A stretch of 63,698 bases of DNA, the filler included, from Asterionella formosa (Eukaryota): NCBI GenBank assembly GCA_002256025.1. It is 11 parts of 11 records of this genome, joined end to end, with 100 filler letters (N's around TTAATTAATTAA, not from the genome) between each part and the next. Parts side by side here need not be neighbours in the genome. Positions count along the whole stretch, not along the records: positions 1 to 17,939 come from NKIB01004217.1; positions 18,040 to 35,974 come from NKIB01004221.1; positions 36,075 to 53,990 come from NKIB01004223.1; positions 54,091 to 55,204 come from NKIB01004224.1; positions 55,305 to 56,418 come from NKIB01004225.1; positions 56,519 to 57,632 come from NKIB01004226.1; positions 57,733 to 58,846 come from NKIB01004227.1; positions 58,947 to 60,060 come from NKIB01004228.1; 3 more parts are not named here. One strand, written 5' to 3'. Position numbers and translations under genes: made by a program. The notes below the pieces were generated by a model. It saw only the letters and a program-made list of their open reading frames with translations, did no database searches and was not told the origin of the DNA. Shown in pieces: positions 1 through 61,900 of this stretch (the stretch's first letter is position 1; each line of letters starts with the position of its first letter).

Positions 1-629
1 ATCGTGAAGGAGACTCGGAACGGTCGCGATACCCGCTTGTCATTCCGATGCTGCTTCTGTCGGGGGATCGCATGATTTTAATCCAGTTCTGCTTACGCAA
101 TGCTGCCTCCTGATACTGCTGTTTGATGGATATTCGCGTTAAGCTATGATTGGATTCGCTGCAAAGGGCACCTCCGAACCAACAGCTCGATCTCGTCAGC
201 GAAAACCAGTGTTTTTGATTTGCAAAGTGGTACCGGCAGATGCAACATTTATTCGATACAAAAAAGGAATGATAAATTTGGTTACCGATAGTAAAGGCAA
301 AATCGCCAACCTTCTAGCCAGTGATAGCGCTATGAAATTGAACTCGTCGAGGATGCACATCTACAAAAATTCTATACAATACCGTATGTATAACAATATC
401 AGAAGTGTGCCTTTCGATTCAACGGATACACGATAAATCTGCCCTTCCGTTAGGCATTCGTTTGGAGCCAATAGTCTGTGCACCGGTATACGTGTACGAT
501 ACCCTTCTCTATTTATGTACCGGTACCTGGTACAGCAATGTGGAAAAGAATTGAGCGACTTTTTAATTACTGATACGACGCATGATTCTACACTGGTCAA
601 ATCACAAGTAGCAGGTATGGTCTTTGGTA

Positions 630-2205
630 CCTGGAAGGTCCGGTAGAGCACGTTTTATGCGTTGTACCTTTTCAGTTTCCACACAATCCCAACGGATCGT
701 CGCATGCCTGCCGAACGAGATTGACTGGCTTTTCATTCCAAACTCTCTTAAGTGACTTCATTCAATGTTACATTATCATTGATAAAATCCAAGTCGTTTC
801 CTGATCATTGAAATTGTGTTCACTACAACTACTGGTAATGGTATTCAGCAACTGAATGACGGTTTGCTAATGGAATTCACCAATCAAAAAAATCAGTAAC
901 TTCTAGTCGTAGTCAGCAATTTCTAGTCGCAGCCAGCAGTTTCTAGGCGCATTCAGCAGTCAGCAGTTTCTAGTCATAGTCAACAGTTTCTTGTTGTAGC
1001 CAGGAAATTCGTTGTCAACAGATTTCTAGTCGTAGCAGCAATCATAAACAAAAGAGTCATTTTGAAAAAGTCGATAGACTATTAATCAACATAACTTAAA
1101 TTGAGAATCAAATAAAATTTCGTTTGACCTACAGATTACGTTAGTGTAGCATGCTGCATACTGTAAAAGTGTCAAATCTGTTCATAACTTCGTCGTTTTG
1201 AATTTTGCATCATCTAAACTATGTGAAGCAATGCACAATCGGCGACTTCAATTTTCGCTGTCATTATCACTAGTGTTAGTATGACAATTATTTTTTACGA
1301 TTGATTTATCTATATTGTGTTAGATATATTTACCAGACAGCCGCATAGCATCATTTTCATTTTCCATGCAGAAATTCGCTATTTTCGACATGGTTAAGGT
1401 GGAGATGGCATGATGCAGGATTCTCCAGCTACACACAAGAACTAGACTGTGGCGTTTTATATACAGGAAGAAATCACAACATCTTCGCTAAATAATTGTT
1501 TACTAGCTCTAGCTATAAGGGCTAAGTTGGAGGTACCCTCAAAATATTTACCTGTATCCTATGTAGTCATATTATATATGTTTTATGTGATATACTATGT
1601 ATGATAGTATGTATTGCAAATAGTATAGTGGTGCCTGGTAAGCCGGTAGGCTGTTGCATCTGGAGTGATAAGAAGCAATGACTTTGACCATGTATGTAGG
1701 TATGACGTTATGTATGCTTATTTGTACTGGTTGCTTGTGTTCGTTCATGTATATACTTCATAGTTATAAGGAGGGTCATTCAGAAAATCTACCGATATTC
1801 TTATTGGCAAATTCAGCAAGGTTTTGTCATAATCAGCAAATTCTAGTTGTAGTAGGCAGCAAATTTTAGTAATTGTCGGCAAGTTCTATTCGTAGTCAGC
1901 ATATTCTAGTCAACGTCAGCAAGTTCTAAATGTAGAAAGGTAGAATTACTACTTGGATTCTGAAGCTAGAAGACGGTTTCTTGAACCCGTTCATCAGTCC
2001 TCAGCAAATCCGAGTCGTGTTCACAGACTGGTGCTGACTCTGCAAATCTTAATCATTCAAAAAGAATAACGTTTTCCTAAATTACTGAAGGAATATTATT
2101 TTAATCGAAGCTGGCCTATCTTGTCCAGCAGGCATGCGATGATCCATTGCGAGTGCGTCGAAACTGAAAGGTTCTCATAAAACGTGTGCTACCGGACCTT
2201 CCTGG
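630..2205. mobile_element. Non-autonomous TIR DNA transposon (~1.58 kb), TA target duplication, Tc1/mariner-type ends
   Basis: TA|CCTGGAAGGTCCGGTAG... at 628-646 and ...CTACCGGACCTTCCTGG|TA ending at 2207. Imperfect TIRs extend about 100 bp. Internal ~20-bp tandem repeats (TTCTAGTCGTAGTCAGCAAT-like) at ~895-1040 and ~1835-1930. No transposase ORF. A second copy of the left end lies at 47140-47466. Confidence 0.8.
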
Positions 2206-6414: not shown

Positions 6415-6590
6415 TGTTACACCACTAGTTTTGTTATCTTCTTTCTGCTGCTAGCCTTCGTGATAGTTTTCACTATTGACCTTACTCTGTCAATTCTCAC
6501 TGTTTCTTAATTATAAGCTTAAATTAAAACTAAGTTTCAATCCCATTCATCATACTTCAAGAACCTGTTCTTTGTGTTCCCTTTTCGAGT
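6415..6590 (-). mobile_element. Fragment of Ty1/copia LTR
   Basis: Reverse complement resembles 18365-18556, and the same strand resembles 56870-57065 (CTGCTAGCCTT...ATTGACCTT...TGTCAATT...ACTGTTTC). Begins TGTTAC. Confidence 0.6.
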
Positions 6591-6882
6591 TCTCCTATTC
6601 GTTTGATTAGTTCGACTAAACCTATTCCATGCCTTAGGAGAATCAAACTTCCAGGTCTTGTTAACCAAATAGGTCAGCAGGTGGTGGATCTGTCAATATT
6701 CTCATTGAAGGCAGTCGAGGTACTGAGATACGAACCCTTTTATGTTGACAAAATTTGCTGGTAATGGGTCACAGCCGTACATAAATTTTTATCTATAATT
6801 GTAAATAATTTTAAATATAATTACGATCATGGATTACCCTGTTTGGTTTTCGCAAAATTATTTTTAAGAATTTTCGTGTCCA
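6587..6882. repeat. Dispersed ~300-bp repeat, copy 1
   Basis: Highly similar to 35563-35854 (e.g. GAGAATCAAACTTCCAGGTCTTGTTAACCAAA, GTCGAGGTACTGAGATACGAACCCTTTTATGT, GTTTGGTTTTCGCAAAATTATTTTTAAGAATTTTCG). Confidence 0.85.
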
Positions 6883-7923
6883 GATTTATCTGAGTACCAG
6901 GGTACCACTGGTACATACCGGTACATCATAATCACACACAAATATATTCAGCCATCAACACTTACCGATATGTACCAGGTACCAGTATTGGTAGGGTACC
7001 ACTTAAAAACTTATTACAGCCCAAAGGTTGCTGTCGACGCGAAATTGCGAAAAATGGAAAATTTCATGTTAACTCTACTGAGCTGGCATCGTCTTTCTAC
7101 ACGTGCACATGTATATGGAGAAATTCTTGTCATAGAATGAATTTACCGGTAGTATTATTAAATGTGTGTATGACGTCATGGTGCTTTCGAATACATTATG
7201 CATCAGAAGAATTCGGTGATGATGCAGGCGCAAAAAGCATACTGCATCGCGCAAAAAGGTAAAGTAATACAAAAATAGTTTCTGTAGTATAAACGGAGTA
7301 AAAATAATCACGGTTTTGGGGGAAAATATACTCATGTATGGATAGAAAAATATGCACTGTAAGCCACCGCTATGCAACAATCTTAATGACTTGAAAAAAA
7401 CTAGATCTTCATGGCTTTATACACTGAATCGAAACTGATTACTTATTCGTAGAATAAAGTGCATCGTGTAATATACCCTTCGTACTTTTATCAGGTTTTG
7501 ATTGTTATATTACTACTACTTGAATATTTTTAGTCAGAAGTTGGAGTAAAATAACGGTGGTTTACAGTTTTTGATTTTACCAATCAGGATTCAGTACATC
7601 TAATACGTGTATTTCAAGTGCGGGATACTTCAGCGAATCTGAAGAAGGTGAATAAATTCAATTCAATCAATCAGAATATGTGTAGTGACGTGGGAACTTT
7701 CCCTGGAGTCTTTTCGGACTGAGAATTATTCAGCGAAACATACCTACGCAAGACTCCAAGTATACGAGAACGTTTTCAAACGTACAAATTCTGATTCCAA
7801 TATTTTGGCGACTGTTGAAAAAGCCGATCGGGTCGGCTTTTTGGAGGAGGATTGCTCTACATCTACGGGGTTTCATGAAGTATTAAATAGATAGCCGTGT
7901 ACCCTATAATGTCAGGATTTAAC

Positions 7924-8041: not shown

Positions 8042-8749
8042 ATGAGGTCCTTACCATTTCTGAATATAGATCATACCCATAAGTCGAGGAATGACTGTAT
8101 CTAAGCATATGCAAAGTGGTCGTATTGGTGAAAGCTAATTTTACTTTTAACTTTTTTATTTAGTTGTTCGTACTGTGTAGATTAAAGTACATGATGAAAT
8201 TATTTTGGAAGAAAACAGACCTTGCGATGTGTAACTGTGGGGCCGCAACCTTAAGTGGTACACACTTTCTTTGCATTGTTGTATTGGGGCTGATGGCTCA
8301 AGTTACTTACTTAAGCAATATCAGGGGATAGGATAGGTTTATGACAAGAATCATCCGCAAAATAAATCGCATGCGATATTTTTGTATATAGTTATCACAA
8401 AACAAAGAATCCTTAAAACATTGGGTAATCCGTGTTCTGGCAATATTTTCGTCGATCGCACTTTTCAACCAATATTTAGGAGAGACAAATTGCTATAAAC
8501 TTATATCTAATGGCATATCCTTTTTAAAGCGTACATGGTCAGGATTTGGGTCGAAGTTTTAAAATTAACATATTGGCATTTGGTGGGGTCAAACCGTGTT
8601 TTCCTCCTGTTCAGTGAGTGGGTCACAGCGGTTCCAAATATTTTTTAATGGGTCGCTCACAGGAGGTTTTTACCGGTACCTGGTACAGTACTTTTGTCAC
8701 GCAGCACTACTACCTGGTACCCTTACGTACTAGGACTACACTACGTCAA

Positions 8750-8850
8750 CAGCAAGTGCGTTGCGGTAATTTTGCTGTAACTAACAATTTAATATGGGAT
8801 AAAGATAGCTAAACATTTGGTTTCAGCAAAATTACCGCTACTTCCACAGG
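8750..8850. mobile_element. ~100-bp MITE, diverged copy of the family at 41814
   Basis: TTGCGGTAATTTTGCT...GGGATAAAGATAGCTAAA...AGCAAAATTACCGC, collinear with 41814-41909 and 53696-53791. Confidence 0.75.
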
Positions 8851-9412: not shown

Positions 9413-10091
9413 GCATAGTCAACGACGAGCTCCATATATACAAGTACATACTCCGCACATAAGCTTATTTAGCGTACATTGATTATTCCTTCCTAACCAC
9501 CATCGTCGTGAATATTGTCAAAACAATTGCTCAGCAGCTCCGCAGTTTTTCCAAATCGTGTTACCGGTACTAGGTACCAGGTACACTACCGGTATCTTAT
9601 ACCAGTACCGTACCTACTCCCCTGTTCTTTCAGTTGATTGTCTTGACTAAAATACTGGTATTGTACGTTTCTAATTTAGTTCCTCCCCTACCGGTAGATA
9701 CAAATGATGATGTACATTCATATCTTACCCTGTAGCCCTGTAGTACTAGTACCAGGTACCTAGTAGAGTGCATACAGACGTACCAGATGCTCGAAGATAG
9801 CTACAGTACGGTAACCTACCTGCACCGTGCTCCCTTACGCTCCCTGGGTGGTTTGTCCATACGTCGGCGGAGATTCAACAAAGATTCATAGCAGACGTAC
9901 GAATGACTAAATACATGAAGGTTCAATGGTACCCCTGGTACCTACCGGTAGTCTATGAAATACAAATAGCTATTCGGTAGCTATCGGTAGCTATCGGTAG
10001 CAGTCGATGAATTTTGATCCGAGCGCCGCACCCATGATGTCATTGTGAATCCCGATACGCACTGCATTACTATGTACTGGTAACTGGTACC

Positions 10092-15173: not shown

Positions 15174-15868
15174 TTGTGACTGAGTGATGGCAAATAATTT
15201 GCTGCGGAACTGACAACTGTGGTGTCACTCAAAAATCAAAATTCCCACTCTGTCCTTAGCCTGTTGGCTAGCGATCCTCTACTGCCTTTTCTCGAAGCAA
15301 TGTTACAATTAATTTGACCTATCACAGTGCCAGTAGCAGATATGACGGATGCCCGCGAGGATGTCTTGAACGAAGAAGGAAGGAGAGGCCCAGCCGGGAC
15401 GAACCCAATCAGACGCTGTCAGTGACAATGATGACATTTCGGCAAAACTAAAATATTTGTACCAGCATGTAGTGGCAGGGTTGTGCCCCCCCCCCCTTCG
15501 TAAGGTTCCTGCATTTGAACCCCTAAATCGAGGTAGGGTTATAACAAATAATGAGTCAGACTAATCAAACAAATAGTTTGCACAAATTAAATGAAAACGA
15601 ATAACGCTCAACGGAGCTTCACCATTAGACACATTTCCATATGTACTGTAAAACCCGGTGTCTTGTACCCCCTTGTACATCTGGCACAACACTCCCAAAG
15701 ATTTTATGTGTACAGAAAAAATAACATAACCTAAACGTATTCTAGTTATTAATTTTTATTTTCGTATATTACTGTTCCCTGTTAAGTATCATCACATGCC
15801 GGGTTTATGAAAAATATTCTCACGTACAGGTATGCAGGTACCGGTAGGTGTATTAGTAATGCAGCAAC

Positions 15869-17185: not shown

Positions 17186-17604
17186 ATTCAATTGACATTG
17201 CAGCAAATCCTTTCAATTCAGGAGCATTCGGATGAAATCCAGGATTGATTATTGTTGCTTTCTGATTCTGTGTTAATGTCATATGATAACAGGGCTCCGT
17301 AAATCATGAGTTGTTAGTGTGCCTTGGCGTGCTGTTTGTCATGCTGCCAGCTGCTGCTGTATTTCTACTGAATTATTGAACAACTCGCACATAAAGATTC
17401 GCATAGTCGTTCAATAATTCAGTAGAAATGCAGCATCAGCTGGCAGCATGACAAACAGCACGCCAAGGCACACTATCAACTCATGATTTACGGAGCCCTG
17501 TTATCATATGACATTAACACAGAATCAGAAAGCATCAATACTCCATCCTGGATTTCATCCGAATGCTCCTGCACTGAAAGGGTTTGCTGCAATGTCAATT
17601 GAAT
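17186..17604. repeat. Long inverted repeat: two 200-bp arms, 19-nt loop
   Basis: 17186-17385 against the reverse complement of 17405-17604 is ungapped with about 10 mismatches by eye (~95%). Confidence 0.95.
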
Positions 17605-21800: not shown

Positions 21801-22140
21801 TTGTATTTGGATAAAATATGATTTGATCATGAATGAAAATATCCAGTCATCGACAACCGGTAATTCTTCTACTCACAAGGTCTCATACATAGTGGGCTCT
21901 CCCTGTTGCCTGGAATGTGAGATGAGACATAGCAACTATGTCTGCACTCCCCACAAAATTACCCAATAAACCTCCAGTAGTTAAAAAAATAAAGAATCAT
22001 TAGTTCATCAAAAAAAACGCTGACCTCGAAAGCGCCCTTGTTGAAACAGAAGACCGGCTTGAGCAGCCAGTGCTGACTACAAAAGCAAGCTCAGGAGCCA
22101 AAGGAATGATAATACTGTGTTGCTAATGCACCAAAAAAGG

Positions 22141-22375
22141 GGGGAATGGCTTAGTGGTTAGCACACTCACTGTGGTGGCGGGTTCGACACCAGCATTCTC
22201 CACCTTTCTTTTTCATGTAGTCCCTAGGGTTCTGGGGAAAGCGGCTGACGAAAAGACTGGTCCCGTTGTGCCATACAGACGAATAAAACTGGTACTAATT
22301 CTGTCCATCTATTTGGTGGACCCGAGTGCAATTATTGGATAGCTTTAATGTACTATAAAATTTAATTGACATTTT
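22141..22375 (+). mobile_element. tRNA(Ala)-derived SINE with 17-bp TSD
   Basis: Head GGGGAAT...CATTCTCCA forms an acceptor-like stem. A box TGGCTTAGTGG (22147-22157), B box GGTTCGACACC (22181-22191). TSD TAATGCACCAAAAAAGG (22124-22140) and TAATACACCAAAAAAGG (22376-22392). Absent from the neighbouring repeat unit. Second copy at 26087. Confidence 0.85.
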
Positions 22376-26086: not shown

Positions 26087-26297
26087 GGGGGGATGCTTAG
26101 TTGGTTAGCATTCCTTCATAGGTGGCGGGTTCGATTGCTGCATTCTCCATCTGCCATTCTTTTTCATGTAGTCGTCCCCACTAGGGTTCCGGGGATCCGA
26201 CTAATGAATTATGAAGACAGGTTCCCATTGTACTGTATAGACAATTAAAACCGGTACTGATCCTCACGCACCAGTACATGAAGTCACCACATTTTTT
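26087..26297 (+). mobile_element. Second, more diverged copy of the tRNA(Ala)-derived SINE
   Basis: GGGGGGATGCTTAGTTGGTTAGCA...GGTGGCGGGTTCGATTGCTGCATTCTCCA...TTTTCATGTAGTC...CTAGGGTTC...TAAAACCGGTACT, collinear with 22141-22300. The 3' boundary is approximate. Confidence 0.75.
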
Positions 26298-26736: not shown

Positions 26737-27711
26737 TTAGTGAAACAGCACTTAATATAAGTGAAGTTAAATTTTTTAAATTAATTATTTAGGTCAATAT
26801 ACCACTAATTCTATAGTAGACGGCACATTACAATCCAGTTTCATCCTCCTCTTCTTCTTCAGATAATGAGGTTTGGTCAGCATGAGAAGAGTCTTGAACA
26901 TGAGAAATGATTTAACTATTGATGCAAGGTGCTTCATTTCTGTTGCTGTACTGAAAATATTTCTAGAATACATGCACTTTCAAGTGGAACTCTGTCCCTC
27001 TTTACTTGCTGATGTCCTCCAGCATGTTGGTCACTTTGCAAGATGAAATCGACACACCACACTCCAAAATGATGTTAAGTCGAAAAAGCTTTGTTAAAGA
27101 ACTTGTATCTGTAATTGTAAAGCATATTTGAGTCCTTCAATTTGGGCTGTAACCTTCAAATGATTAACAAGGATACGCATTGTTTCCTGGAAGAAAAGGC
27201 TCTCAAAAAATTATGTGAGTAAATTATAGAAACATAAATGACAGCAACAACTGGATGAATAATATTGGATGGTGCGCACCATTAAGCAATACACAGCTTT
27301 GTTGATGCTGTTGGATTTTTCATAGTATTGGCCTAACAATGTCGTCGCTCGACTGGTTCAGTGGACGAAGAACCGGGTTTTGCCCATCACTTCATCGTTC
27401 CTGCCACAGTGTGGTCTGTGAGCGAAACTGACGATGTCGTCATTGCTGCTGATGCGCACTACATGGTACCTGGTACCTGGTACCTGGTAACATTCTGAGG
27501 AGATGAGAATTTATTCTCGGACGGAACAAAATTAGTAATAATTGATTGAAGTTCGGCGCGACGGCGCATGTCCGGAACAAGATTCTTCGCTTAGTATGCC
27601 TACCGGTACTCTGTATACCGATACAGCCAACTTTTCCGAGTGATTCTCACAATAAAAGGACACTAAAAACTTTCGGCACAACAGGGACAAAGGCTGGCGA
27701 AATCGACAGAA

Positions 27712-30700
27712 ATGAAGTCTTTTGCCTTTTACTTTCATCTAGCAATAGCTGCAATCTGTTGGCTCAGTGAATCAGCACTCGCATATTCATTCTCTTCGTT
27801 TCTTGGCCGGTCATTGGCATTGGAAGCATGTGCGCATCCCACCAGTACGAGACAACGCTTGTGCTCGCTGACGATGAGAAAGCAAAAGGCATCTGACAAA
27901 AGAACGTCTAGATTGCAGCGAGGTGCCGAGAGCGGGGTTGTTGATGCTTCTGATATCATTCGATCTCTACGAAATACGCTGACTACGTCTCCCATGGCGG
28001 ATGCAATGTGGGTAGAAAAGGAAATCACAAGTCAGTTGCCAGTGAAACAAACTGGTGGAAGAGGCAGATCCAGAAAGCGATCGTCCCTTTACCAGTGCTT
28101 ATCGTCTTATCATAATAACTTTCTCACTATGTTGTCGGCCGAATACAAGGCGGAGGTAAGCTATATGCTGACGTCAAAAATTATTCGACGTCGAAGATTC
28201 GGAGACTCGAAATAGAGATTCACTTTACTTTTGGCGCGCCACTCACACTTGCAACAATGCGTTATAGGAAGATGAGGTTTTAGGAAGGATCAAGGCTTCC
28301 ATTGAGGACCCAATAAGTCTGGAAAATGCGGGCTATGCCCTCTTTGACATGTTTCCAGAGCGACGTGGAAATTTGTTTGCTGATGAGGTGCGTTCCCGGG
28401 TATGGTGTGTTCCCGTCCCCACCAGAAGTAGTTCTCACTGTCGGCACTTCGTCAACCACGAATAGGTATATCGAATGGTGAAAGCCAAAGATGCAACAAC
28501 TACTTTCACTGATGATAATACAGACGACGCAACTATAAGTTTCCTTCCTCCCAGACACAAGTTTTCCGTCAACGATGTCATTCTTCTCACTTTGCAACCT
28601 ACCGGTAGCGGTGACTTCTTCGGGCCTGCAACTTTGCCGACCAATGAAGATGCTGTCTCAGCCGAAGCTCGTATTTTGAATACTGGACCTAGCTATGTCG
28701 ATATAGCCCTTCCAGGAGGTGCATTCGAAAAGGCATTTGGTCCTGCCCCAAACAACGTCGGGCCTTCGGGTAAGGGAAGTCCCCGCATGCGCATACGTGT
28801 GGATCGATTCTTTTCCAGAGTTCCTTATCAAAGAATGGTGACTGCCCTGGGGCAGCTCACGTCCCTCCCAGATCGGGTCAAAAAACCTGATGCTGACGGT
28901 ATTAGGCCCGTCACTAGCGAAACATCCAACCCATATGACTCTATTTGTATGGACGAACTGCTTCGAGAGACGATCCTCTCCACCTATGCTTTCAATGATC
29001 CCACAAGTCAATTATGTCGTGACACTGACGCATGCGATCTTCAGGAGCTGGCAAGACGTCTCGCTCGACCACCGTTACCCAACTCATCCAGGTTGGCTAA
29101 TCAAGCGCTGGTCTATATGCAGTCCAATCCACATGGGGTATTCGGTAAATTCAATGGACCACAACTTACAGCTATTGGAGCTGCTCTTACTCGCAGACTG
29201 ACTCTTGTACAAGGTCCACCAGGTAATTGTCTTACGTTTCTCTTCTCGTACTTCTCTGGTTGCTTTATTTATGAACTCGAACTCTAACTGATCATATTTC
29301 ATCGTTTCAAGGGACTGGCAAGACAACAGTTGGGGCTGCAATTGGATTTGGATTTGTCCATCAGTGCAGAAGCATTTCACCAAATACTAAGGTTCTTGCG
29401 TGTGCTTTTAGTAATGTCGGTGCTGATAATATGGCGGAAAGCTTAATCAAACTTGGCCTAAAGGTCGTTCGTGTTGGTAAGGCATCGGCTGTTTCTCAGT
29501 CGTTGTGGGACATCACACTTGACGCCGCAATTGACAGAGATCCCATAGCCCAAAAAGCGCAGGCAAATGCAGCATACATAACTGGGCAGTTGTCGAAGGC
29601 GTCTCGGGGAAATAAGGGAGCTAGCAAGAACAAGAGTATATCGTTGAGTGAACACACCATCCGCGAAGCAGCAACCGCTGCTGTCAAAGCGTCCATCAAG
29701 GCCTGTAATATTGCGGCAACAAAAGCTCTCCGCGAAGCAGATGTAATTGTGTCTACGTCGACGGGAGCCTCTGATCCTCGTTTGTTGGCTGCATGTGGTT
29801 TAGTTTTAAACGATGAAGCTTTGGAAGAAGATGGACGATTGAATAATCCGACTGCGAAGAAGACGATTCTTTCGAGCTCAAAGCCAGGCGAGAAAGCAAA
29901 AAAAATACGCATCAATGCTCCCGATAATTTGCCTCCTCTTTCTCTTCCATTCGTTATTATCGACGAAGCATGTCAAAGTGTCGAACCGGCCAGCATTGTG
30001 CCGGTAACTTCATCCGACAGCTGCCGATCGCTAGTCCTCCTTGGAGACCCTTGTCAGTTGCCACCAACAGTTCGCAGCTCACCTACATCATCTCTGACTG
30101 TCTCGCTCATGGAGAGAATGGCTGCAATTTTGCCGCAACCTGTGATTGTCACCGCTCAGAATGATCACACTGATAAAGATGAGTCGTTTTTGACAGGAAA
30201 ACCGACAAAGCAAGCTACGTCTTTATTACGAGTACTTTATACAGATCAGCCCAAGGTCTCTTATCGCAAGAAATTTGCTGGATCTCTTTTACTCTCAGTT
30301 CAATACCGAATGCATCCATCCATTGCTGCTTTTTCGTCCGCAATCTTTTATGACGGCCTACTCTCTACCCCTAGCTTCCTTGGAGAAACCCGCCCTTTCC
30401 CTGAAGTTTTGCGAAGGCAGTTGCCTTCCGAAACGCCTGACATTGGAGTACGTTTTGTAAACGTCGGTGGACGAACGAACGAGCGCCGAGGTTCTCGCAA
30501 TAATTTCGTTCGGACAGCGTATGGGTCATCACCTTCAGTCCCTTCGGAGCAGCAAACCTCTTTCTGTAACGAAGAAGAAGCCCGCCGTATTATTTCTCTC
30601 GTAACAATAATGTTAAATGAGAACGGGGGCCACAATATGGACTCCTCAAGTATTGGTATTGTGACACCATACACGGGCCAAGTTGAACTCATCAAATCCA

Positions 30701-35141: not shown

Positions 35142-35562
35142 CTGTTGCTCAAGTTTTCTCATCTATTTTTTCAGTAGATAGAAATAATTATCTAGTAAAA
35201 GTTATTAAGCTAGTAGTAATCGCGGACTCAACGATGTCTCGTTTTGGTTTGTATACTCAAAACGGAGCAAATGACAGTAATTTTCGTCATGTTCAAGATG
35301 GATTTGCTATCTCGCTCATGGTTCCCATACCACAGGCAGCAGTACAAATGCACATGCAAGCACTGGTAGTAATATGTATGCAAAATGTATATAATATACC
35401 GGTGTATATATTAGTATAATTTGAACTGGTGCCAGTTGTCATATGTATGGATATGAAACCATGCATAGGTTGAGATGCACAACATACTGGCACCAGTACT
35501 ACCTGACTAGTACTCTAGCTGCTAAACTACTGGTACCAGTAAAGAACTGCTGTGACCCACTG

Positions 35563-35854
35563 AGTTCTCCCATTCGTTTGATTAGTTCGACTACACCTTT
35601 CCCATGCCTTGCGAGAATCAAACTTCCAGGTCTTGTTAACCAAAGGAGTCAGCAGATTGTGGATCTGTCGGTATTCTCATTGAAGGTCGAGGTACTGAGA
35701 TACGAACCCTTTTATGTGGACAAAATTTGCCGGTAATGGGTCACAGCAGTACTTAAATTTTTATCTATAATTGTATATAATTTTATATACCATTATGATC
35801 ACGGATTACCCCGTTTGGTTTTCGCAAAATTATTTTTAAGAATTTTCGCATCCA
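35563..35854. repeat. Dispersed ~300-bp repeat, copy 2
   Basis: Homologous to 6587-6882. Here ACTGCTGTGACCCA (~35545) and TGGGTCACAGCAGT (~35737) form an inverted pair. Confidence 0.85.
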
Positions 35855-36259
35855 GTATTTATATCACTATCACACGCAAATGCATTCAGCCACATGAAAT
35901 GCTTGCGCCTATCAACACCACTGCAATATCGCCCTCATCCCTACTAAGCTCCTGCCCTCCCACAAGCTCAACATNNNNNNNNNNNNNNNNNNNNNNNNNN
36001 NNNNNNNNNNNNNNNNNNTTAATTAATTAANNNNNNNNNNNNNNNNNNNNNNNNNNNNNNNNNNNNNNNNNNNNACTTCATTCAATATTACGCATCATAC
36101 TTTGGTGATGTATGCATCGATGTAACCCTATCGTGATATCACATTATCATCTTATCAATCATGATGAGATGATTAAGAACTGTATTATTCTGCATCGTAG
36201 TTCGTAGTACAGAGTATGATATTATAACACGCACTTTAGTAGCTAAGTCACTCCTGTAA

Positions 36260-38861: not shown

Positions 38862-39751
38862 CACACGCACTATTACCAAATACCTGGAGCACCATGTAAT
38901 ACTCCTTGTCATGAACATATAGTGGGAATGGATGAGCAGATGATCTCAGTCTTTTGCTTCTTGGCAGTCAAATATGTAGTCTAATGAATTCCATATTTCA
39001 AGCTATGAGGTATAGCATAGGTACTACATTAATTGCCATATCATAGCTATCATTCTTTCATTTCCCATCACCCTGCAGCCAGCAAGCAACACACACTTAC
39101 AAATGCCTATCTGCATCACATGATTTCGTCCTATGCATTTCATGCGTATACATACATAAATACATACATACAAACTCCTGGACTGCCGCTCAGCCACCTT
39201 GCTTTGCTTCTTCTTGGTGTCTGAAAGAATTCTTCAACAGCCATCCTATTGAAAATCAACCCCCTGCTGTCTGCAGCAATTCCGGTTGTGGAGGAGGCCA
39301 GACGATTGTTTCCGCATATCCACAGAAAAAATTGGTCCATCATGATTTACAAAATACATTTTTTTTAGTTTGGCTAACCTACTATGTAACCCATGTACCG
39401 ATATACTAACGGCATTGCTGTCGTTGGTTGTGCAAATAGAATGGATCCAACGACTGTTAGTCTCTGTCATTGTACCATGCTAAACTACCCCTACATACCG
39501 GTAGTTGAAGCCTGAACATAACTTGGCTTGTCGACCGACTCGATCTTGAATCCTCTCATTTGCTATTGAAACATACGTTGTCGTTGCACAATCAGGTGTG
39601 CAAACAAGATATATTGTTCAACATCATCATACTTTCTATCTTGAAGTGAAGTTGGTTAATTTGCCTGCAAAGGAAACAAGCCTTTCTGTTCGTTCTCTAT
39701 GAATCCTGACACATCCTATTTTTTATTTAGATATTTGACCATTATCGAAGA

Positions 39752-39988
39752 ATGAGTGATTCAAATACCTCTGACTTCATGGCAACTTTGGTTGAAAATG
39801 CCAAATACATTGGTGGTTCTTCCACAAATGAGAAGCCACGAGCCTGCCAAGTTCTATGCGAGCCCCAGCAGGCAGTGCTCGTTGCTTGTGTCGATATTGT
39901 TCGAGCATCTGGAGACAGTTCCTGTATGGCCACTGCGATTCAGACATGGACCAAATGCTGCGCAGATGCCAACATGGCTGAAAGCTAA
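39752..39988 (+). CDS. Small CX9C-CX10C (CHCH-like) protein, probably mitochondrial intermembrane space
   Basis: CEPQQAVLVAC (CX9C) and CMATAIQTWTKC (CX10C) in a 78-aa ORF. Confidence 0.55.
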   Translation: MSDSNTSDFMATLVENAKYIGGSSTNEKPRACQVLCEPQQAVLVACVDIVRASGDSSCMATAIQTWTKCCADANMAES

Positions 39989-41678: not shown

Positions 41679-41813
41679 CTTTTCTCTCTTCAGTTAGCAA
41701 TTGAGTGAGTTGTATGGAAGGAAGGACAACCGGTAGACTTGCAACGGGAGAGCAGATGAACACCATTGAAATTGATGTCGCTGATAGGCAGCTAGGGGCG
41801 GGGGTACGAAGTA

Positions 41814-41909
41814 CCAGCAAGTTGCGGTAATTTTGCTTAAGCTAACATTTTAATCCGGGATAAAAATAGCTAAAGTTTTAGTTTCGGCAAAATTACCACA
41901 ACTTGCAGG
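41814..41909. mobile_element. 96-bp MITE with ~23-bp TIRs and TA TSD
   Basis: TA|CCAGCAAGTTGCGGTAATTTTGC...GCAAAATTACCACAACTTGCAGG|TA. It lies between the divergent TRAPPC2L and METTL16 genes. Confidence 0.88.
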
Positions 41910-42126
41910 TACCGGTACTGGTACCTAGCTATACCTACCGGTAGTTCTGGAATGATGACCGTCCTGACGCATTTTACTTTGAGGAAAACAAAGCTAAATT
42001 TCCGTTTTACAGCAACTTGCGCTGGTACCAGGTACCAGGTCCTACCTGGTATCGGTATCACCAATATCCTGGAACATAAAACTGAACATGGTGAAGCGAA
42101 ACCAATATTGACATCTTACAGTGAGC

Positions 42127-44652: not shown

Positions 44653-45224
44653 GAGGGCGTCGTCCAGCGTGTATCGCTATAGGGCACAACCAAGTAGGTA
44701 TGATTGAGATATCATTACAAGCCATAAATTTTATTTCCGGTATGCCAATCAACGCCGATACAGCCATACTACCGGTAACGGTATCCAGTACTCCTGGTAA
44801 ATACTAAATATGAATTGGAAACTGACGACAACTAATAGTATACCGGGTATGTAGTGTGAGATACTGTACCTGGTACCAGGTATCGGTATACATATGTTGT
44901 GCAATGAAACGAGGAACAAAGCACCCATTAGCCAATCGTCAGCCCTTCGTTTGTGTACCAGGTACCAGGCAGTCTACAGAATGATATTTCAAATGATACC
45001 GGTTGTATTATTTTACAGTCCGTCAAGATGGAAGAACAAAAAACACAAGCACTACCGGTATCTGGTAGGGTATCTGATACTACTCCGGAGTGGGGTGATC
45101 GTTGTTGTCGTGTTTTCTTTTATGTATAGATTATACAATTCCATTGCTAAATCATCGTCGCAGGCTCCCGATCAAATCTACTACATTCTTATTGTTTGTC
45201 CACCAGCAGAAGCACACTGTAACC

Positions 45225-47466: not shown

Positions 47467-47894
47467 TACATCATTATGGAAGGAAATTGAGTTACCAGTA
47501 CCCCCAGTACTCTCTAGCTTTGTCGTTTTAATTGTTATTTCGCGGTATCAAATCAATTTTTGACCAGTGATTACTATGACTTAATCTTAAAAAATTACTA
47601 TACTGTACATTGGGTTTTATTGACAAGCAAACAAGTTTTAGCTTTAACAACAACCCCGGAAAACTGGAAAAGGTTGACTACCGGTACATGTACGGTACCA
47701 GGTACCTGGTACCTGGTAATTGTTGCATGTGTGTATCTTATGATGTCGTTCGTCGTGGGTTGTGCAATGATTGAGTCGAAGCAATCATCGATCCCATATT
47801 TCACGGCAAGCACACCATATAGCGGTTTAACGTCCGAACCCACTTGGCGACGGGCGTTCTACGATATTGTCACAAGAATTAGTATCGATCCACC

Positions 47895-50688: not shown

Positions 50689-52199
50689 TTAATAGAAGCA
50701 AGCCAAAGTCTATGTCAACATAGCTCCTCGCCCCAGCGCTCGATCGTGTTGTAGACAATACAGACGAGTATTATTGCAAAGTGATTTTGCGAACAACTTT
50801 ACAAAATGATGATAGCTATACCGCCGGGAATTGCTTCTCGATGAATCATCATCCCATCATCCAGCCTCATCTGCAAATGATCATCAATGCGTCGTACTGA
50901 GTACGTCATACTGCGGTGGTCGTAAATGATACATGATACCTGATACTCCTGATACCTAAAAATAGAAAAGGGGCGTTCTTATCATTTTGGATAGGATATC
51001 ATAATATTTGAAAAAGTGTCATACTATGGCTACTCGATTTCAGCCGAAAATATTCATTCCCAACTTTAAAAATAAACAATTTGTATCACCAAAAAGTTTC
51101 AAGAAAATTCAACGCTTACAGGCTGGCTGCAAACATGTGTTTTTCCCTCCATTTTTTTTTGATAGGAAACTAGCACTGAAAACATGTAGGAAATCTATGC
51201 ATATGTGCTTGATATAATTTTTAGATATAATTTTTAGACAACCAGTACCTGTTGTGAGGTTGCTGATTCAATTGTTGAAGCTGCTGGAAAGAAAGACCAT
51301 TGTATGAAAATCTTGTTTGTTGATCAACGTTCTCATTGTCAGGATCATTGAAGTCGGAGTCATCCAAATCAATCCGACCAAGTCCTGGAGAAAGATTGGT
51401 TTGAGGGGGCAAAACTTAGAAGCCTTTGTTGTTACTCTTGTTCTCATGAAGTGATAAAGCCGACTTCTTTGGATGGAATGGTCTCTTTCAGTGACGTTTG
51501 TAGTTGTAGTAGCAGTAAACGAAAGTGTTTGACAAATTTCATCCTCCAGGTAGACAGACAAATGTTGATTGTTGACGTTAGTGGTGCTTTTGGTCACCTC
51601 TTTTTGGTGTAGTAGTCTCTTTTCACAATGAGTCATACGTTCCGTCTTTCTTTGACTCTTGTGTCTCTGCAGCAGCAGCGTCCTTTTTGCTTTGGCAAAG
51701 AGCTTTCCAAAGAAACCATTTCATCAAAAGCTGGAGTTGGAAAAGGTACTACTAGTCTGACTGATTTGATGATTGATCCGGTTTGTCATTAAAATTAGAG
51801 ACCTACAGGCTCATTTCGGTTATTTTATCAGTGACAACAGAAATGGTACTTGTTTGAATTTGCCAGTATCACTGATACCTTTTTTAGAGAAGGTCAAAAA
51901 AGGGATCAATTTGGTATCAATGATACTGCATTGCTTGATACGACTAGGGTAGCCATTGCTGATAGTACCCAAAATTGATACCAACTGTCTTTTTTTGCTC
52001 AAAACCCGGAAATGATACCACATTGTGCAAAAAATGCTGAATGATAAGAACTCCCCTAAAGGAACAAACCAACATTCATACCATCTTAGGTAAAATAAAC
52101 TACCGGTACATAGTACTGCTTCCTGCAAGAGCAATTAGCCTGTGGCAGCCAGCAAGTTGCAGTAATTTTGCGATGTCTAGTTCCATGTACGAGTTCGTA

Positions 52200-53633
52200 C
52201 TGGCAATAGGGATTCTAGATAGCAGAGGTGAGAAAAGTGTGTGCAGAAATAGAGAATGGATGGATCAGTTGGATCAGCCTCAATACTATGGATGAGATAT
52301 TGAGTACCAGGCAGGGCTGGTTCTGGGTTGCTGAGAATAGCACTGCCCCATGTGGCATATGATTCAGGGATGGGATGTGTAAGAAGTTGGAGACTTTTAA
52401 CACGGAAGGCTTCTTTGTTCGACTGAAATTCTTGCTATTCCTGAAATTTGGAAGCATAGGATCTATCAGAAAGGCCAAGGAAGTGGGGGAGAGAAAGATC
52501 ATCGAGCATTGAAAAGGATACCAGGAGGGAAATTTCAATTGTTCATCCAGGGACAGTACGTCCTGGAGAAGTTGTGAGTACTCGATTGATAGGGGGGAGA
52601 GTTACAGATAGCTAACTATGGCTGGCGCTGTGATTGTGGGGTAGTGCCTGGTCCTGGGACTTCTCGCCATAGGAAGATGAATGGAAAAGCAATCTTGAGT
52701 TTTCCTTGCAGTAAGGAGATGAGCTGATTTTGCAAGGCTAAGTGGTTGATTTTCTTTGACGAGTAAAGGAGCCATCCGCAGTCAACTGACACGTCTCCAT
52801 GGAAAAGATCGCGATGCAGGATCCCTTGGGGGTGAGCAGCAGAGATAGTCACTAGTTGCTAGTGTGGTGATAGGTTGACAGGAACGAAGATGGATTCTTC
52901 CCCTGACAACATGATCCGTTAATTGATGGCCACTGTGGAGTAGTAGAGAGAAATTACTGTAGCGAATAAAATGTTGGAGGGTAAGGACTGAGGTAGGCGG
53001 TGGGGACTGGCGAGAAATGCATTTGGCGAACTTGCTGGATATTGGGAGTATGGTGGCGAAACAGTCATGGAAGAAAATTGTAGTAAGAAAGGACCGGACA
53101 GTGGCAGTGAGTTGATCAGATGAGTAGTTTACTGGGGTCGGTATGATTTGTGGGAGGGTAACACTGAAGAAGAGCCATGTCAATGTGAATGAGCGAGAAG
53201 TCAGCCGGACTGTTGGGAGGATCTGGAGAGTCGGGAGAGGGGCTTGGAGGGGAGGGGAGACACCGGTGGGAGTGGCGGTAGTGCGCTTGGATACTGGGGT
53301 CGACGACGGGTCAGGAAGATTGTTTGTGGAGGAGGAGCGCTACTTGCCCTTGCTGTGGAGTTCGTGAAGTTTCAAGGATACGGCGGTGGTTGGAGAGTGT
53401 GTAGTATGGCTGGGGGAGAGGTGGAGTGACTAGCAGAGGAAGCAGCGCTCTTCGAAAGAAAGCGCTGCATGATGGTTGCATTACTAGTTTAGTGGCCTTT
53501 TTAATGAAGTCATGGTTGATTTTGTTGGTTCTTTGCGCTGATTGAGCGCTGACGAAGGAGGAACGAAGACGGTTGACATCGGGGGGTTAGGGGTTGGGGT
53601 GGTGGCAAGAGAGGTTGCATCCAATTCGGACAT
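52200..53633 (-). pseudogene. Degenerate long reading frame, possibly LINE ORF1
   Basis: Starts MSELDATSLATTPTPNPP (ATG at 53633). Pro/Ser-rich, strong strand skew, broken ORF pieces (CGWLLYSSK...). No catalytic motif seen. Confidence 0.35.
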
Positions 53634-53695
53634 GGTGAGGGACGTTCAGGTCAGCAGCAGCGCATACTAGCTAGGTGGTGTCCATTGACTATGTA

Positions 53696-53791
53696 CCAGC
53701 AAGTTGCAGCCATTTGGCTTAAATAAACAATTTGATGTAGGATAAAGATACCCAAAGGTTTAGTTTTAGCACAATGACTGCAACTTGCAGG
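53696..53791. mobile_element. Third copy of the 96-bp MITE (an isolated left TIR also lies at 52149-52171)
   Basis: TA|CCAGCAAGTTGCAG...CTGCAACTTGCAGG. Confidence 0.8.
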
Positions 53792-54442: not shown

Positions 54443-54508
54443 AGATTACAATAGCCTGCCAGATTAGAAATAAAGCACCGTTGGTACTTGTTGAGCATCG
54501 TTGAGCAT

Positions 54509-56063: not shown

Positions 56064-56083
56064 TTTATTCGTTTCTGTTGAGC

Positions 56084-56305: not shown

Positions 56306-56518
56306 GCAATTCAATTGACGAAAACTTACATTATTTGTTTGGCATAAAACACTGTTCGTCGTATTCTATGAGCAAAACCGTGGCAAAGCAAAAATTGAAT
56401 AGAGTCAAGGCAAGCAAGNNNNNNNNNNNNNNNNNNNNNNNNNNNNNNNNNNNNNNNNNNNNTTAATTAATTAANNNNNNNNNNNNNNNNNNNNNNNNNN
56501 NNNNNNNNNNNNNNNNNN

Positions 56519-57199
56519 AAACTTGTATAGGCAACCGTACTATTTCGTTTCGCACGCTTCTCATCGTTGTCGCTCGGAACAATCTTCACTCCAGCTGAAT
56601 CTCTCTCACCTGGTGATACTTCATCTCCACTTAGGATTCCTTCAAAACCTTTGTAGCAGGCATAGGCCACAAACTTCGCTTTTCAAACATGCCACTTGGC
56701 ATCGGTACCATCAAATGTTGGCAACCGCACTCCTGACGATTCGTCGTCAATTCCCATCTTGAGTACCCTTTCAAACCTATACGCTTTAAAACGTGTTGAA
56801 ATGGTCCGTACTCCTTCCCGCGGGTTGGGTCTCTCTTCACGTAGACTCTTACGTGATCGTAGTACTCCCTAGTACCACTTACTTTCTCTCTTGTCTCTGC
56901 TTCTAGCCTTCCTGCTAGATAGACTAATTGACCTTCCTGTCAATTAACACACTGTTTCCTCGGTTGATAATCTAAAACTCAAATTAAATTATAAGCTAAA
57001 CTAAATGTTTCCTTTCCATGCATCTTTGCTTCCTGCAAAGTCGTTCTCAGACTCTCTTCGAGTTTCCACTTAACATTTCCTTAGAAATCTTCAATCTCTG
57101 ATCTCGTTAGACAGCTGATTGACGTGGCAATGCAATATTCGACTCGTTCGATTACAATCGAGTCCACAATCCTTGTGACTCGGACTAATATTCTTGACA
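56519..57199 (-). mobile_element. Ty1/copia 5' LTR (~57199-56860) and gag N-terminus, same family as 18224
   Basis: LTR starts TGTCAAGAATATTAG. Gag TFDGTDAKWHV...MAYACYKGFEGILSGD...DEKRAKRN aligns with the reconstituted gag around 18700 and 20305. Confidence 0.8.
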
Positions 57200-57732
57200 C
57201 CTATATGCATGATACTTTTTATTTGCAGACGTAATCATGACATCGGACTAAAATAATTTCAGTCGTAAACACAACAGGGTAAAATAACGATGACTCTCAG
57301 TTTTGAGGTTGTTGCCAGGTAAGCCCTGGTACAACTGTGGTAATCTACTATACCGGTAAATTTGATGGATTATTAATACCGGTACCGGTAGTCTACCCGA
57401 CATGACTTGTCAGTGTCGGGAGGGGAGACAACATCGTCGCCACATTCATTAGCATCCCAGCTAATAGATCAACCATGCAACAAGGAGAAGTGAGCTTGCA
57501 GTCAAGTGTAATCATGAAATGGAGATCAGGAATTAACAGGAACACCAAAACAAGGCAACGAATCGTTCCTATTCTTCTCTTCGTCGGATGCGTTCTCGTA
57601 ATTTCGGGTATCGTCTATGCGATGGCGTCGTCNNNNNNNNNNNNNNNNNNNNNNNNNNNNNNNNNNNNNNNNNNNNTTAATTAATTAANNNNNNNNNNNN
57701 NNNNNNNNNNNNNNNNNNNNNNNNNNNNNNNN

Positions 57733-58846: not shown

Positions 58847-58946
58847 NNNNNNNNNNNNNNNNNNNNNNNNNNNNNNNNNNNNNNNNNNNNTTAATTAATT
58901 AANNNNNNNNNNNNNNNNNNNNNNNNNNNNNNNNNNNNNNNNNNNN

Positions 58947-60026
58947 CGTCGAAGAATCAAGTCAATCGCATTGACAAAGGTTTTGAGGTGTTCCTCTTGC
59001 GAAACCGAACCTGGGCTGCTCGACCATGAGAGAGCCGATAATGAAGTACCAAATGAACTGCAGATCGCAGTGTACAAATGGTCAATGTCGTTCCAATGTT
59101 GACAGTCTGGAATGACAGTTACGAGGTACTTGCAGCTACTGTCATATTGCAGCGTACGAATCAAGTTAACAAGTGAGTGCGACTTGCCAATTCCCTGCGG
59201 TCCCTTAATCATGATTCCAGCCGGACCACCTATATTGAAGGCATCTTCAACCGCTTTCATCATATCCTTCACAATTTCAGGCCGATATAAGATTCCCCGT
59301 CTCTTGCAATCATTAAACCGCACTTTTCGGAGCCCTTTCATCCAGTAACTATCTTCGGGGGAAAAGACGGGAACAATGGGATCAGAAGGAGGTAAAGAAT
59401 CGTCAGAATCAGATAAAGTAGGTTCAAAAGGAAGCTCGTTTCGATCAATCTTGTAGATATGCATTGTCTGTGGAACGATTCGCTTTTCCTGATCCACCTT
59501 CAAGCGCTTGAAATGAACGTTGAGCTTCTCCTTTATAAGCAATATTAAGGTCGAGGCTTCCTCCTGCTCATCATTTTGTTTCTGGCGTTTCGTCGTTCCT
59601 TGGTCTTTTCAACAGTAGCGAGTATTTGTATGGGATAAATGATACGAAATGATACGTGAGTATTAGGAGCTGTGACCTACAATACAATAGAAGGTATTCC
59701 ATGAGATCAAAACACGTACCAATATCAGGTTGGATGACCACGATCAGGATCACGATCACGAACGCATTCTTGCTGCTAGTTCCCCAATTCAGATGAACAA
59801 CCAGACCTCCAGGATCCATGGTTGGATCATCAGCTCCCTCAGGAACCGGCACTTGAGTTCCAGGTGGGCACACACGGAGCCGCGCTGAGGAAACACCTTG
59901 AAGATCGTCACCACATTTAATCTTCACAGCTTCCATCAAGTCAGCAATGACATCATTCTTCTTCAACGTGACATAAACTGGCAATAGTCCTGCGTTTCCA
60001 CGGAACAACTGGAACCAAACCTTCAT
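58947..60026 (-). CDS. Crinkler/RHS-like (CR) protein: ubiquitin-like header + P-loop NTPase, 3'-truncated, 2 exons
   Basis: Exon 1 60026-59720 (MKVWFQL...DVIADLMEAVKIK...LQGVSSARLRV). A GT-AG intron at 59719-59605 joins it in frame to exon 2 with GPQGIGKS. Confidence 0.65.
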
Positions 60027-61900
60027 TGTTTTCTAACTGATGGTGGTGGGTACCTGGTTGNNNNNNNNNNNNNNNNNNNNNNNNNNNNNNNNNNNNNNNN
60101 NNNNTTAATTAATTAANNNNNNNNNNNNNNNNNNNNNNNNNNNNNNNNNNNNNNNNNNNNAGAGAGGTGCCCGAATGGGAGGAGGTCGACTGCGTGCAAT
60201 CGGTTACCAAAGAGAGAGTCTATTATGATTAGCAACAGCCTCCCTGACGAAGATCATGATCAACGTTACTCGAGCCAGGAAGGAGTGTCCTACCGGTAGT
60301 TGTGCCCGCAGCCGTTTTGACTGGTATTTCAATTTCTTTCTTTGATCGTGAGCGGGCCTGCCGTGGCCAGTAGATATATTACCTACCACTCTGTATGATA
60401 TTTCATACTCTGGATGATGTTCAATTTATTTCTTCCACTGCTCGCCTGATGTATGTTCATTGATTTTCTATCTAAGAATGTGAACACTGGATTTTTTGCA
60501 TTGACACAAGCTTCATACAAATGATACTGATACTTAAAAATATTGAAATCTATTTATATCCATAAATGTGTATAGGTATACTCTCTACCGCCTCGTAAGT
60601 ATGGTGCGCTGGTGGGATATTTACTACAGAACTTGTTTACTAACTAACTGGAGTGAAAGCTACCGGTAGGCTAGATACATTTGTCAGGTACCAGGTACCA
60701 CCAGTACAGTTATGAATTTATTAGTGATAAATCTCTTGTCTTGGTGATGGCCTGGAAACAACAAAAATTTTCAACAGCTGTATTGAATCAACATAAATAC
60801 ATTCAAAGTGCAAAGATTGAAGAGATTAGCCATTGGATTGGAATAAACATGCCTTGAGAATTTTGACTTGTTGCCTTTTAAATATTTATCACTAAAAATA
60901 CTTGTTGTTTTGTCATCACAAAGGCCATTGCAATGGCCATCAACAACCTTTGCTTATGCCATCTTTGCTTCTTGCTGTGACCTTGTGAATTCACCACTGG
61001 TTCGAGCATTGAACACTTGGACTAATAGAATGAATCGATGGATCCTTGTGGGCACTCAGCATTCCAATTTAGTTTTGAGCGATTTTAACATTGGTTATCA
61101 TGGCAAGCACCAGCAAAGAACTTGATATTACAACATGAATACACTGGACATTTGGTCTGAGAAGGAGGAATGGACCATCACAAGTTTGATGAACCTCAAA
61201 ACTAGCTACTAGGGAAGATAATTAATGCTAGAACATAATTGTTAACATACAGTAGTAAGTTAAAAGAATAGGTNNNNNNNNNNNNNNNNNNNNNNNNNNN
61301 NNNNNNNNNNNNNNNNNTTAATTAATTAANNNNNNNNNNNNNNNNNNNNNNNNNNNNNNNNNNNNNNNNNNNNTTAGTTATTGGTTCTTGATTCAAATCG
61401 AGGCATGGGAGAGTCCTGCTTCGATCAAATTCATTGGTGGCGAGCACCCAAAAGAAAAGCCCAGCGGCTCTGGAACAAAGAAAATTCTCCGCCTCTCTGG
61501 TGTTGGAGAAAATATTTTAGGAAAGAAAATCCCGGTATAAATTACCTACTACATATTGAATCGAATGAATCAAGAAAGAATATGGTCCCAGAGAATTCGA
61601 AAACAATCTACGCCAACAGTAAAAAACCCATAATTCTATTAAAACTCTTAGGAACGATTACAATCGATCACGGAGACATCGTTGTTATATCTACAGCCTA
61701 TTTGGTCCCTGACGTGTCCTTACAGGATACAAGAAAGCATATAGTGCTTCGGGACGCAATTTCAACAGTTTTAATAGAATTAGCCGGCCAGGAAGAGCCG
61801 TGATACCACAATCAACAACAAGCGGACAATTGAGAGTCCGGAGACAAGATCTGAGGGTACCAGACCATCCAGAGTCTGAAGAAGTCGCACAAGGCGCATC

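Follow-up and report, generated by a model that had tools for sequence, protein, structure and literature searches.

Why should a stretch of diatom DNA be crowded with two short words that both begin and end in TA? We addressed this question in a window of 63,698 nucleotides from Asterionella formosa (assembly GCA_002256025.1), in which the words TACCGGTA and TACCWGGTA (the latter found as TACCAGGTA and TACCTGGTA) recur singly and in stacks. An earlier interpretation made from the sequence alone (hereafter the sequence-only reading) had taken both words for excision scars of resident transposons that insert at TA and have CCWG ends. Our comparisons make it very probable that both words are excision footprints of pogo-type (IS630-Tc1-mariner) elements, and they point, with less assurance, to a different source for each word. 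The window consists of separate contigs joined through N-TTAATTAATTAA-N linkers; because the contigs are artificially linked, adjacency across a linker carries no meaning. The final contig (62587-63698) is GC-rich, dense in bacterial-looking genes and probably a contaminant, and it was excluded from every count.

TACCGGTA occurs 28 times in the window, where at least 25 copies had been claimed, and all 11 coordinates named for it were exact; TACCAGGTA occurs nine times and TACCTGGTA ten times, giving 19 copies of TACCWGGTA. When the eukaryotic contigs were shuffled 100 times with dinucleotides preserved, the mean counts were 0.37 for TACCGGTA and 0.27 for TACCWGGTA, with a maximum of 2. Among the 106 NN-CCGG-NN sites in the window, 28 are TACCGGTA and the runner-up word accounts for 8, so the objection that other CCGG-containing 8-mers might be equally frequent fails, and the proposed excess beyond chance holds. 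Genome-wide, across 68.4 Mb in 15,436 contigs and with reversed patterns as control words, we counted 28,528 copies of TACCGGTA versus 1,718 for the control and 26,886 copies of TACCWGGTA versus 902. These ~55,000 sites amount to ~0.36 Mb, or ~0.5% of the assembly, if six or seven added bases are counted for each and the background is not subtracted. In a sample of 282 kb that was not chosen for any element, CCGG and CCWGG are the top two enriched TA-x-TA words with x of up to five bases, exceeding the expectation of an order-3 Markov model 19-fold and 26-fold, respectively. By comparison, TA-CCG-TA, the form built from one end, is rare, with ~2-fold enrichment and two indel events. One-base variants of TACCGGTA are also present in the window, TACTGGTA/TACCAGTA at 12 sites and TACCGATA/TATCGGTA at 10 sites, and could be products of methyl-C decay of the scar; at the same TA, L245 has TACTGGTA and L252 has TACCGGTA.

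The words behave as insertions at a single TA. We aligned 957 kb of own-genome DNA (the window contigs plus loci L001-L183) all against all and scanned for indels between paralogues of 78-99.9% identity with clean 12-base flanks. TA>TACCGGTA accounts for 10 of the 43 distinct six-base indel sites, none of them a tandem copy, TA>TACCWGGTA for four of the 27 seven-base sites (two tandem) and TA>TACCATGGTA for two of the seven eight-base sites; a 14-base gain at L005 consists of two CCWGG units in opposite orientation. Where partners are many, the word is the minority state, as in one copy of a miniature inverted-repeat transposable element (MITE) compared with 23 partners. Singleton gains are opposed by up to 60 partner alignments without the gain, and the TA is kept on both sides. 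Since the word is found in a minority of copies, the gain is the derived state. Within ~375 bases of one repeat, whose 11 copies hold 123 substitution alleles, four separate TAs gained CCGG, each in a single copy. The paralogue comparison thus bears out the earlier claim that the words arise at TA as +6 or +7 indels.

A population comparison, made with sequencing runs labelled lake, freshwater or algae metagenome where a label was present, showed that the six-base unit at 41936 is absent in three of four lake runs. Long contigs of run X3 keep four of five CCGG and six of six CCWGG words, with 39 substitutions in 10,990 bases relative to the window; because X3 is so close to the window, this retention says little. 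No contig skipping the MITE at 41814 was found among the matches listed, and X3 contigs enter the MITE from both sides; joints in these data stem from repeats and were disregarded. Other insertions at TA were seen as well: three lake runs have four extra bases at window 41792-41794 (TA>TATTTA), and the commonest TA-anchored indel among paralogues is TA>TACTA/TAGTA (47 of 236 three-base sites, 22 of which fit slippage and 25 of which do not), with TA>TAGCTA at eight of 129 sites.

Elements with matching ends reside in this genome. The DDE_1 profile matched at 93 places, and the DDE_3 profile matched none of 16 candidates, yielding no Tc1/mariner-type partner by that route. P1, a DDE_1 element of 2,460 bp with ten copies of 99-100% identity, carries a DD35D triad (spacing counted from the translation), short terminal inverted repeats (TIRs) and a TA duplication. 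P1 and P2 have CCG...CGG ends; TA+CCGTA ends number 430 exact matches versus 21 for the control, and some ends of this type are paired ~650 bp apart as MITEs. Family A is represented by 799 exact ends versus 0 for the control, with CCAG on one side and CCTG on the other in eight of ten intact TA-flanked copies. Family C has 70 exact ends of the type seen at 35536, and its full copies of 2,461 bp (L178:1085-3545) and 2,465 bp (L179:297-2761) have CCAG at both ends. The two CCWG-ended TIR families that had been described, MITE family A and family C with one end at 35536, are present, and the genome does harbor young, TA-inserting DDD transposons with ends that match the words.

The family C proteins, encoded at L176:675-2418 and L058:2-847, have 99 longer relatives (P0121-P0219) of ~660-1030 amino acids, 98 of which lack Pfam annotation; one named relative is from Fragilaria crotonensis. 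The residues D447, D596 and D634 are unchanged in every one of the 60 relatives that were aligned; 37 residues separate D596 from D634, and the contexts of the three aspartates are DE, DGH and QVGD. In the ESM Atlas, the core of the protein is nearest to DDE_1 clusters (0.96), and the best cluster is mostly diatom. Judged from its sequence, the protein is probably a pogo-like DD37D transposase of an unannotated diatom lineage, and this putative enzyme is what the proposed search for an autonomous transposase with CCWG TIRs turned up. Pfam matches of its relatives (E 0.003-0.3) and two PDB matches (E 0.7-0.9) were dismissed as noise. A source with CCGG ends was also considered and dropped, because no element family starts with CCGG: in a 729-kb boundary scan, CCGG starts appeared only in scar-led words. 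Three further observations concern other elements. A third pogo family, P3, has CAGTG ends (L122:299-2626, L069:7488-9593), and empty paralogous sites confirm its TA duplication. At L177:1108-1863, a Mutator-like transposase frame (PF20700) lies directly beside a family C MITE of 855 bp. A TIR family that begins with AGGTTCCTGCATTT (window ~15502; L061, L071, L080, L009) has a T-TA-A context on either side; it probably targets TTAA or TAA and is separate from the TA scars.

The scar bases match both element ends combined, CCG...CGG corresponding to CCGG and CCWG...CWGG to CCWGG. According to the available portion of PMC6943129, the cut that Tc1/mariner transposases make in the non-transferred strand falls a few bases within the element, and the resulting 3' overhangs are end-joined into footprints. 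In the mechanism that we propose, insertion would duplicate the TA, excision would leave short 3' overhangs of the terminal bases of the element on both flanks, and end joining would anneal these overhangs to give TA-x-TA. CCGTA-ended DD35D elements (P1, P2 and the ~650-bp MITEs) would leave TA-CCGG-TA, with two CCG overhangs pairing via CG, and given the little flank preference of P1/P2-type elements, CCGG scars would be mostly single. CCWG-ended elements (family C and probably family A) would leave TA-CCWGG-TA or, more rarely, CCAGGG or CCATGG. Here, CCA and CCT overhangs, or four-base CCAG overhangs with a central mismatch, would yield TA-CCAGG-TA or TA-CCTGG-TA, and unpaired CCA ends would yield TA-CCATGG-TA. 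We infer the excision step, the overhang lengths, which transposase would mobilise family A, and why there is a 5' bias (described below).

Because a scar should retain the flank of the site chosen by its maker, the flanks can tell sources apart. GG precedes the target TA at 38 of 52 family C ends and 48 of 96 family A ends, compared with three of 29 P1/P2 ends (C versus P1/P2, p = 4e-8) and 7.5% of all TAs. The unstacked words divide in the same way, with GG at 127 of 332 CCWGG half-sites (background 5.2%) and at 28 of 515 CCGG half-sites, equal to background (5.2%, p = 0.84). So do the new insertions: a G-type neighbour was found at 17 of 18 half-sites in nine CCWGG-type indel events and at four of 20 in ten CCGG events. 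These results make it probable that TACCWGGTA comes from the CCWG-ended families A and C and TACCGGTA from the CCGTA-ended P1 and P2. The sequence-only reading, in which CCWG-ended families stood behind both words, has to be revised in this respect, as TACCGGTA lacks their GG bias and fits CCGTA-ended elements. One could still imagine a single source within the footprint model, with the CC-ended CCWG families leaving both CC+GG and CC+W+GG. Every one of these ends does start with CC, a CCWGG word is the stacking partner of 13 of the 294 CCGG words, and TACCGGTA precedes four of 96 A ends and two of 52 C ends. We consider this unlikely, because unstacked CCGG words have flanks at background when A, C and CCWGG are all strongly GG-biased, because so few of the new CCGG insertions have a G-type neighbour, and because autonomous CCG-ended elements and their MITEs exist.

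The assignment of two sources also bears on stacking, which involves 120 of 307 CCWGG words and 25 of 294 CCGG words. Directly after a TACCWGG scar lie 18 of 70 family C ends, compared with 0.65% of TAs, and the flank consensus of family C reaches CCWGG. Families A and C prefer G|TA|C or, better, GG|TA|CC, and a CCWGG scar would supply a good half-site at both of its TAs; by virtue of this preference, the scar would rebuild the landing site of its makers. Two scars would form a full CCWGG|TA|CCWGG site, and repeated rounds would build arrays of mixed orientation. Repeat sites with several copies show empty, filled and scarred states. At one GG|TA|CC site, nine copies have a plain TA, L107 has +CCTGG and L252 has +CCAGGG, and contigs L042 and L049 hold a family C end right after the TA. 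At another, L118 has one unit, L044 and L146 have two, and L175 and L182 have a C element in the TA between two units. The earlier proposal that accessible TAs were used repeatedly stands as far as repeated events at TA are concerned, but CCWG-type sequence preference explains the stacking better than accessibility alone, given the GG flank of three of 29 CCG-ended versus 38 of 52 family C ends. On balance, we favor target feedback as the main cause of the arrays.

Replication slippage or template switching could make and expand the words without any transposon. Tandem duplications do account for two of four seven-base events and 22 of 47 three-base TA[C/G]TA events, near-homogeneous arrays exist (L181), and both words are palindromic. 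As an origin of the words it is nevertheless hardly credible: none of the ten CCGG events has a local tandem template, neighbouring CCWGG units are in the same orientation in 31 cases and in opposite orientation in 27 (p = 0.69), and the 14-base gain at L005 holds opposite units. A microsatellite unit would be copied from its neighbour in the same orientation, which is not the pattern seen here, and the balance of orientations agrees with the earlier view that the arrays record events at TA that happened again and again. Some arrays may have been extended by slippage, which cannot, however, start one.

A number of observations weigh against footprints of these elements as the explanation. No excision was observed in this sequence data, and the 30 ends of CCG-ended elements that were compared yielded no filled/scar pair; a paralogous non-filled flank was present for 33 of 204 ends of all families. 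Scar calls that were ends of neighbouring elements (A, B, C) were discarded from the filled/empty comparison, which was carried further for L118/L044/L146/L175 and L042/L107. L042 and L049 are known on the near flank only, so they show a shared target and not a scar descending from an element. Both scars are hybrids of two ends, and a strict Sleeping Beauty footprint would hold the bases of one. The base beside the TA (G13 A6 T6 C4 for P1/P2, G181 A179 T67 C161 for CCGG scars) agrees loosely (p = 0.09), and the GG flank of the CCWGG words classed as unstacked could be inflated where an older scar has decayed next to them. In the lake runs, the gap at 41935 is shifted by one base to the left of the clean register, so that an adjacent base change is required. 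Insertions of the types TA>TACTA/TAGTA and TA>TAGCTA are frequent (also window 51963-51967) and have no element with fitting ends. On the protein side, family A has no coding partner, its five longer members being without a transposase-like frame, and the family C protein has no significant Pfam (16 of 16 relatives) or PDB match; its profile match to P1/P3 is weak (hhalign probability 0.9%, E 0.058), with the second and third Asp aligned. Finally, scars outnumber exact-match elements by ~60-130:1, which needs long or intense turnover.

This ratio would also suit a transposase-linked process other than ordinary excision, in which terminal bases are deposited when integration is aborted or of the hit-and-run type, or when the element re-inserts next to the donor break. 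The family C ends lying directly after a scar (18 of 70) are in line with it, and local re-insertion is reported for ZB in mice in the available part of PMC7913693. Many C flanks, by contrast, have G or GG before the TA without a nearby scar, which needs a true target preference, and paralogues without the element (L044, L146) already hold both flanking scars. We regard such a process as very unlikely and retain excision footprints as the origin of the words.

The words are enriched at gene 5' regions, as had been claimed, when checked against frame starts. Open frames of at least 250 codons served as stand-ins for genes, with introns and short genes blurring the upstream and downstream classes. 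In the 282-kb sample, the density of CCWGG per 100 TA is 2.26 in the 500 bp upstream of a frame, compared with 0.08 downstream and 0.66 in the remaining DNA, and that of CCGG is 1.89, 0.68 and 0.87, respectively; of 42 long frames, CCWGG lies upstream of 16 and downstream of one, and CCGG upstream of 16 and downstream of five. The majority of both words (95 of 135 and 72 of 104) is nonetheless off called starts. Family A ends are themselves upstream-enriched (0.97 versus 0.22 per 100 TA, in a sample chosen around A ends), so insertion bias can produce the 5' pattern.

The upstream excess of both words, together with the words kept in X3, could alternatively reflect transcription-factor or chromatin-protein sites maintained by promoter selection, whatever their origin. 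We find this very unlikely indeed, and selection is unlikely as the origin of the words, although some may have been recruited later: they enter whole, as insertions, within transposons and other repeats, most are distant from called starts, family A ends share the upstream enrichment, and X3 is separated from the window by only 39 substitutions. Other organisms argue in the same direction. In 60 SF3A1 loci (398,784 bp), a set with no sister species and a best identity of 55%, TACCGGTA was counted 17 times, TACCWGGTA 0 times and the control words 14 times; the two words are thus no general feature of diatoms, and these orthologous promoters lack the enrichment that a conserved diatom cis-motif would have. 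Two short SF3A1 loci of another organism (L228 and L230, 42% identity) have three TACCGGTA each in ~2 kb, or six of the 17, and may reflect the same scarring process in another diatom.

Pfam confirms the CNNM, helicase, Sedlin_N and Methyltransf_10 genes in the window, and the identity of SF3A1 was confirmed through homologues; its named relatives are diatoms. The clusters reported upstream of CNNM, the helicase, Sedlin_N/Methyltransf_10 and SF3A1 are where they were said to be; the label START is not supported, as the 359-aa frame that bore it has no Pfam match. Within 700 bp upstream of a tested gene span lie 12 of 28 CCGG and 13 of 19 CCWGG words, and none of the 19 CCWGG words falls within the ten gene spans tested. 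The description of TACCGGTA as nearly always intergenic is accurate, with exceptions at 28600 (helicase span) and 55687 (an unannotated 268-codon frame).

Along the window, TA-CCGG-TA-CCTGG-TA stacks are found at 518-532 and, with a neighbouring TACCTGGTA, at 8671-8719; these chains, and the three-unit chains at 27467 and 47696, are as originally described. A family C fragment on the plus strand (6580-6985) contains stacked TA-bounded units at ~6895-6925, a block missing from the copy at 35850; the underlying alignment took in an unrelated stretch, and only that block was used. TACCGGTA at 7144-7151 is a +6 insertion at TA relative to three paralogous copies. A decayed family A MITE lies at 8745-8848 (plus strand, 75% to the 41814 copy). 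The stretch 9562-9950, upstream of the CNNM gene, holds TACCGGTA four times and TACCAGGTA twice. At 15646-15680 (plus strand), a decayed terminal repeat of the CCGTA-ended pogo family P1 follows a TA, and TACCGGTA at 15839-15846 is 666 bp upstream of an NCA2-domain gene. The (TACCTGG)3TA array and a TACCGGTA lie upstream of the helicase gene (27467-27608). A young family C element on the plus strand (35536-35974), with one end TA|CCAGTAAAG... and TACTGGTA before it, is cut by the contig end. A spliced gene whose start is near 39771 has TACCGGTA 275 bp upstream (39496-39503).

Between the divergent Sedlin_N and Methyltransf_10 genes sits a 96-bp family A MITE (41814-41909, plus strand) with CCAG/CCTG ends and TA on both sides, TA|CCAG...CAGG|TA. 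It is followed by a stack of TA-bounded units (41910-41943), and we confirmed that TA-CCGG-TA-CTGG-TA comes directly after the MITE. TACCAGGTA and TACCTGGTA are found upstream of the methyltransferase gene (42026-42051). The 359-aa frame and SF3A1 are divergent, and the region between them (44770-45060) has TACCGGTA twice and TACCWGGTA three times. Further along are TACCGGTA with the mixed-orientation CCAGG-CCTGG-CCTGG array (47679-47718), family A ends at 52149, 53696 and 53791 (52149-53791, plus strand) that form a short MITE, possibly within a longer member, three TACCGGTA of which two are tandem (57351-57390), and TACCGGTA with TACCAGGTA (60661-60697). The window also holds a near-perfect inverted repeat at 17186-17604 (200-base arms, 95% complementary, 19-base spacer), tRNA-like repeats with A-box/B-box-like words at 22140-22205 and 26087-26152, possibly a SINE (short interspersed element) family, and degenerate arrays of 20-base units at 873-1012 and 1813-1948, which look like the subterminal repeats of some long TIR element.

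Most work on footprints concerns individual marked loci, and a footprint becomes invisible after element loss. In the DNA examined here, no other words seem to be as over-represented as these scars, and TA>TACCGGTA seems to be the commonest six-base indel among paralogues. They would constitute a countable record of transposition, separable by family via the flank signature, and would test the share of end joining versus homologous repair after excision in a diatom. A scar that rebuilds the target of its maker offers a simple route to insertion hot spots and promoter-proximal arrays, and it carries a warning that transposon debris can come out as the highest-ranking promoter motif when motifs are searched for. 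With its sharp GG|TA|CC preference, the putative family C transposase is a candidate for a sequence-selective TA-inserting tool. More speculatively, and with considerable doubt, a DD37D pogo-like lineage may target the mirror of its own ends, the feed-forward steering elements to scarred 5' spots as a self-built safe harbour, and the promoters of ~40% of genes may have been rewritten by a GC-rich palindrome now open to reading by host proteins or DNA methylation.

Among known systems, the footprint of Tc1, TACATGTA, holds two terminal bases per end between TAs, the same plan as TA-CC-GG-TA, and to our knowledge its description comes from excision at marked loci, with no account of it as a word found across a genome. 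The label DD37D otherwise belongs to maT. The family C protein and its element resemble pogo-like DDE_1 elements in the TA duplication, short TIRs and three invariant Asp residues, and differ in the DD37D spacing, the large protein (~850-970 amino acids) and the lack of a significant Pfam or PDB match. P1, classified by sequence, is a member of the pogo superfamily with DD35D, Passer or Fot: as far as the available texts go, Passer excision leaves 0-4 bases (PMC9976928), and DD35D marks Fot as well as Passer (PMC8472432). For Sleeping Beauty (SB), the canonical footprints given in the available portion of PMC6943129 are TACAGTA and TACTGTA, under a rule by which a single end contributes its first or its last 2-4 bases. 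The A. formosa scars are like those of Sleeping Beauty and Tc1-mariner elements in the TA duplication around terminal bases, in fitting end-joined 3' overhangs and in mirror forms such as CCAGG/CCTGG; they differ in combining bases of the two ends (CC..GG), in adding 6-7 bp and in being a natural, genome-wide component. SB and ZB prefer ATATATAT as target (PMC7913693, available part), whereas families A and C target GG|TA|CC, a site rebuilt by their own scar. Our literature search, from which subscription journals were mostly missing, found no paper that deals with these words in diatoms or with a footprint rebuilding its own target. Footprints as such are a known kind of event; the scale, the probable two-source split and the proposed self-renewing target appear to be new.

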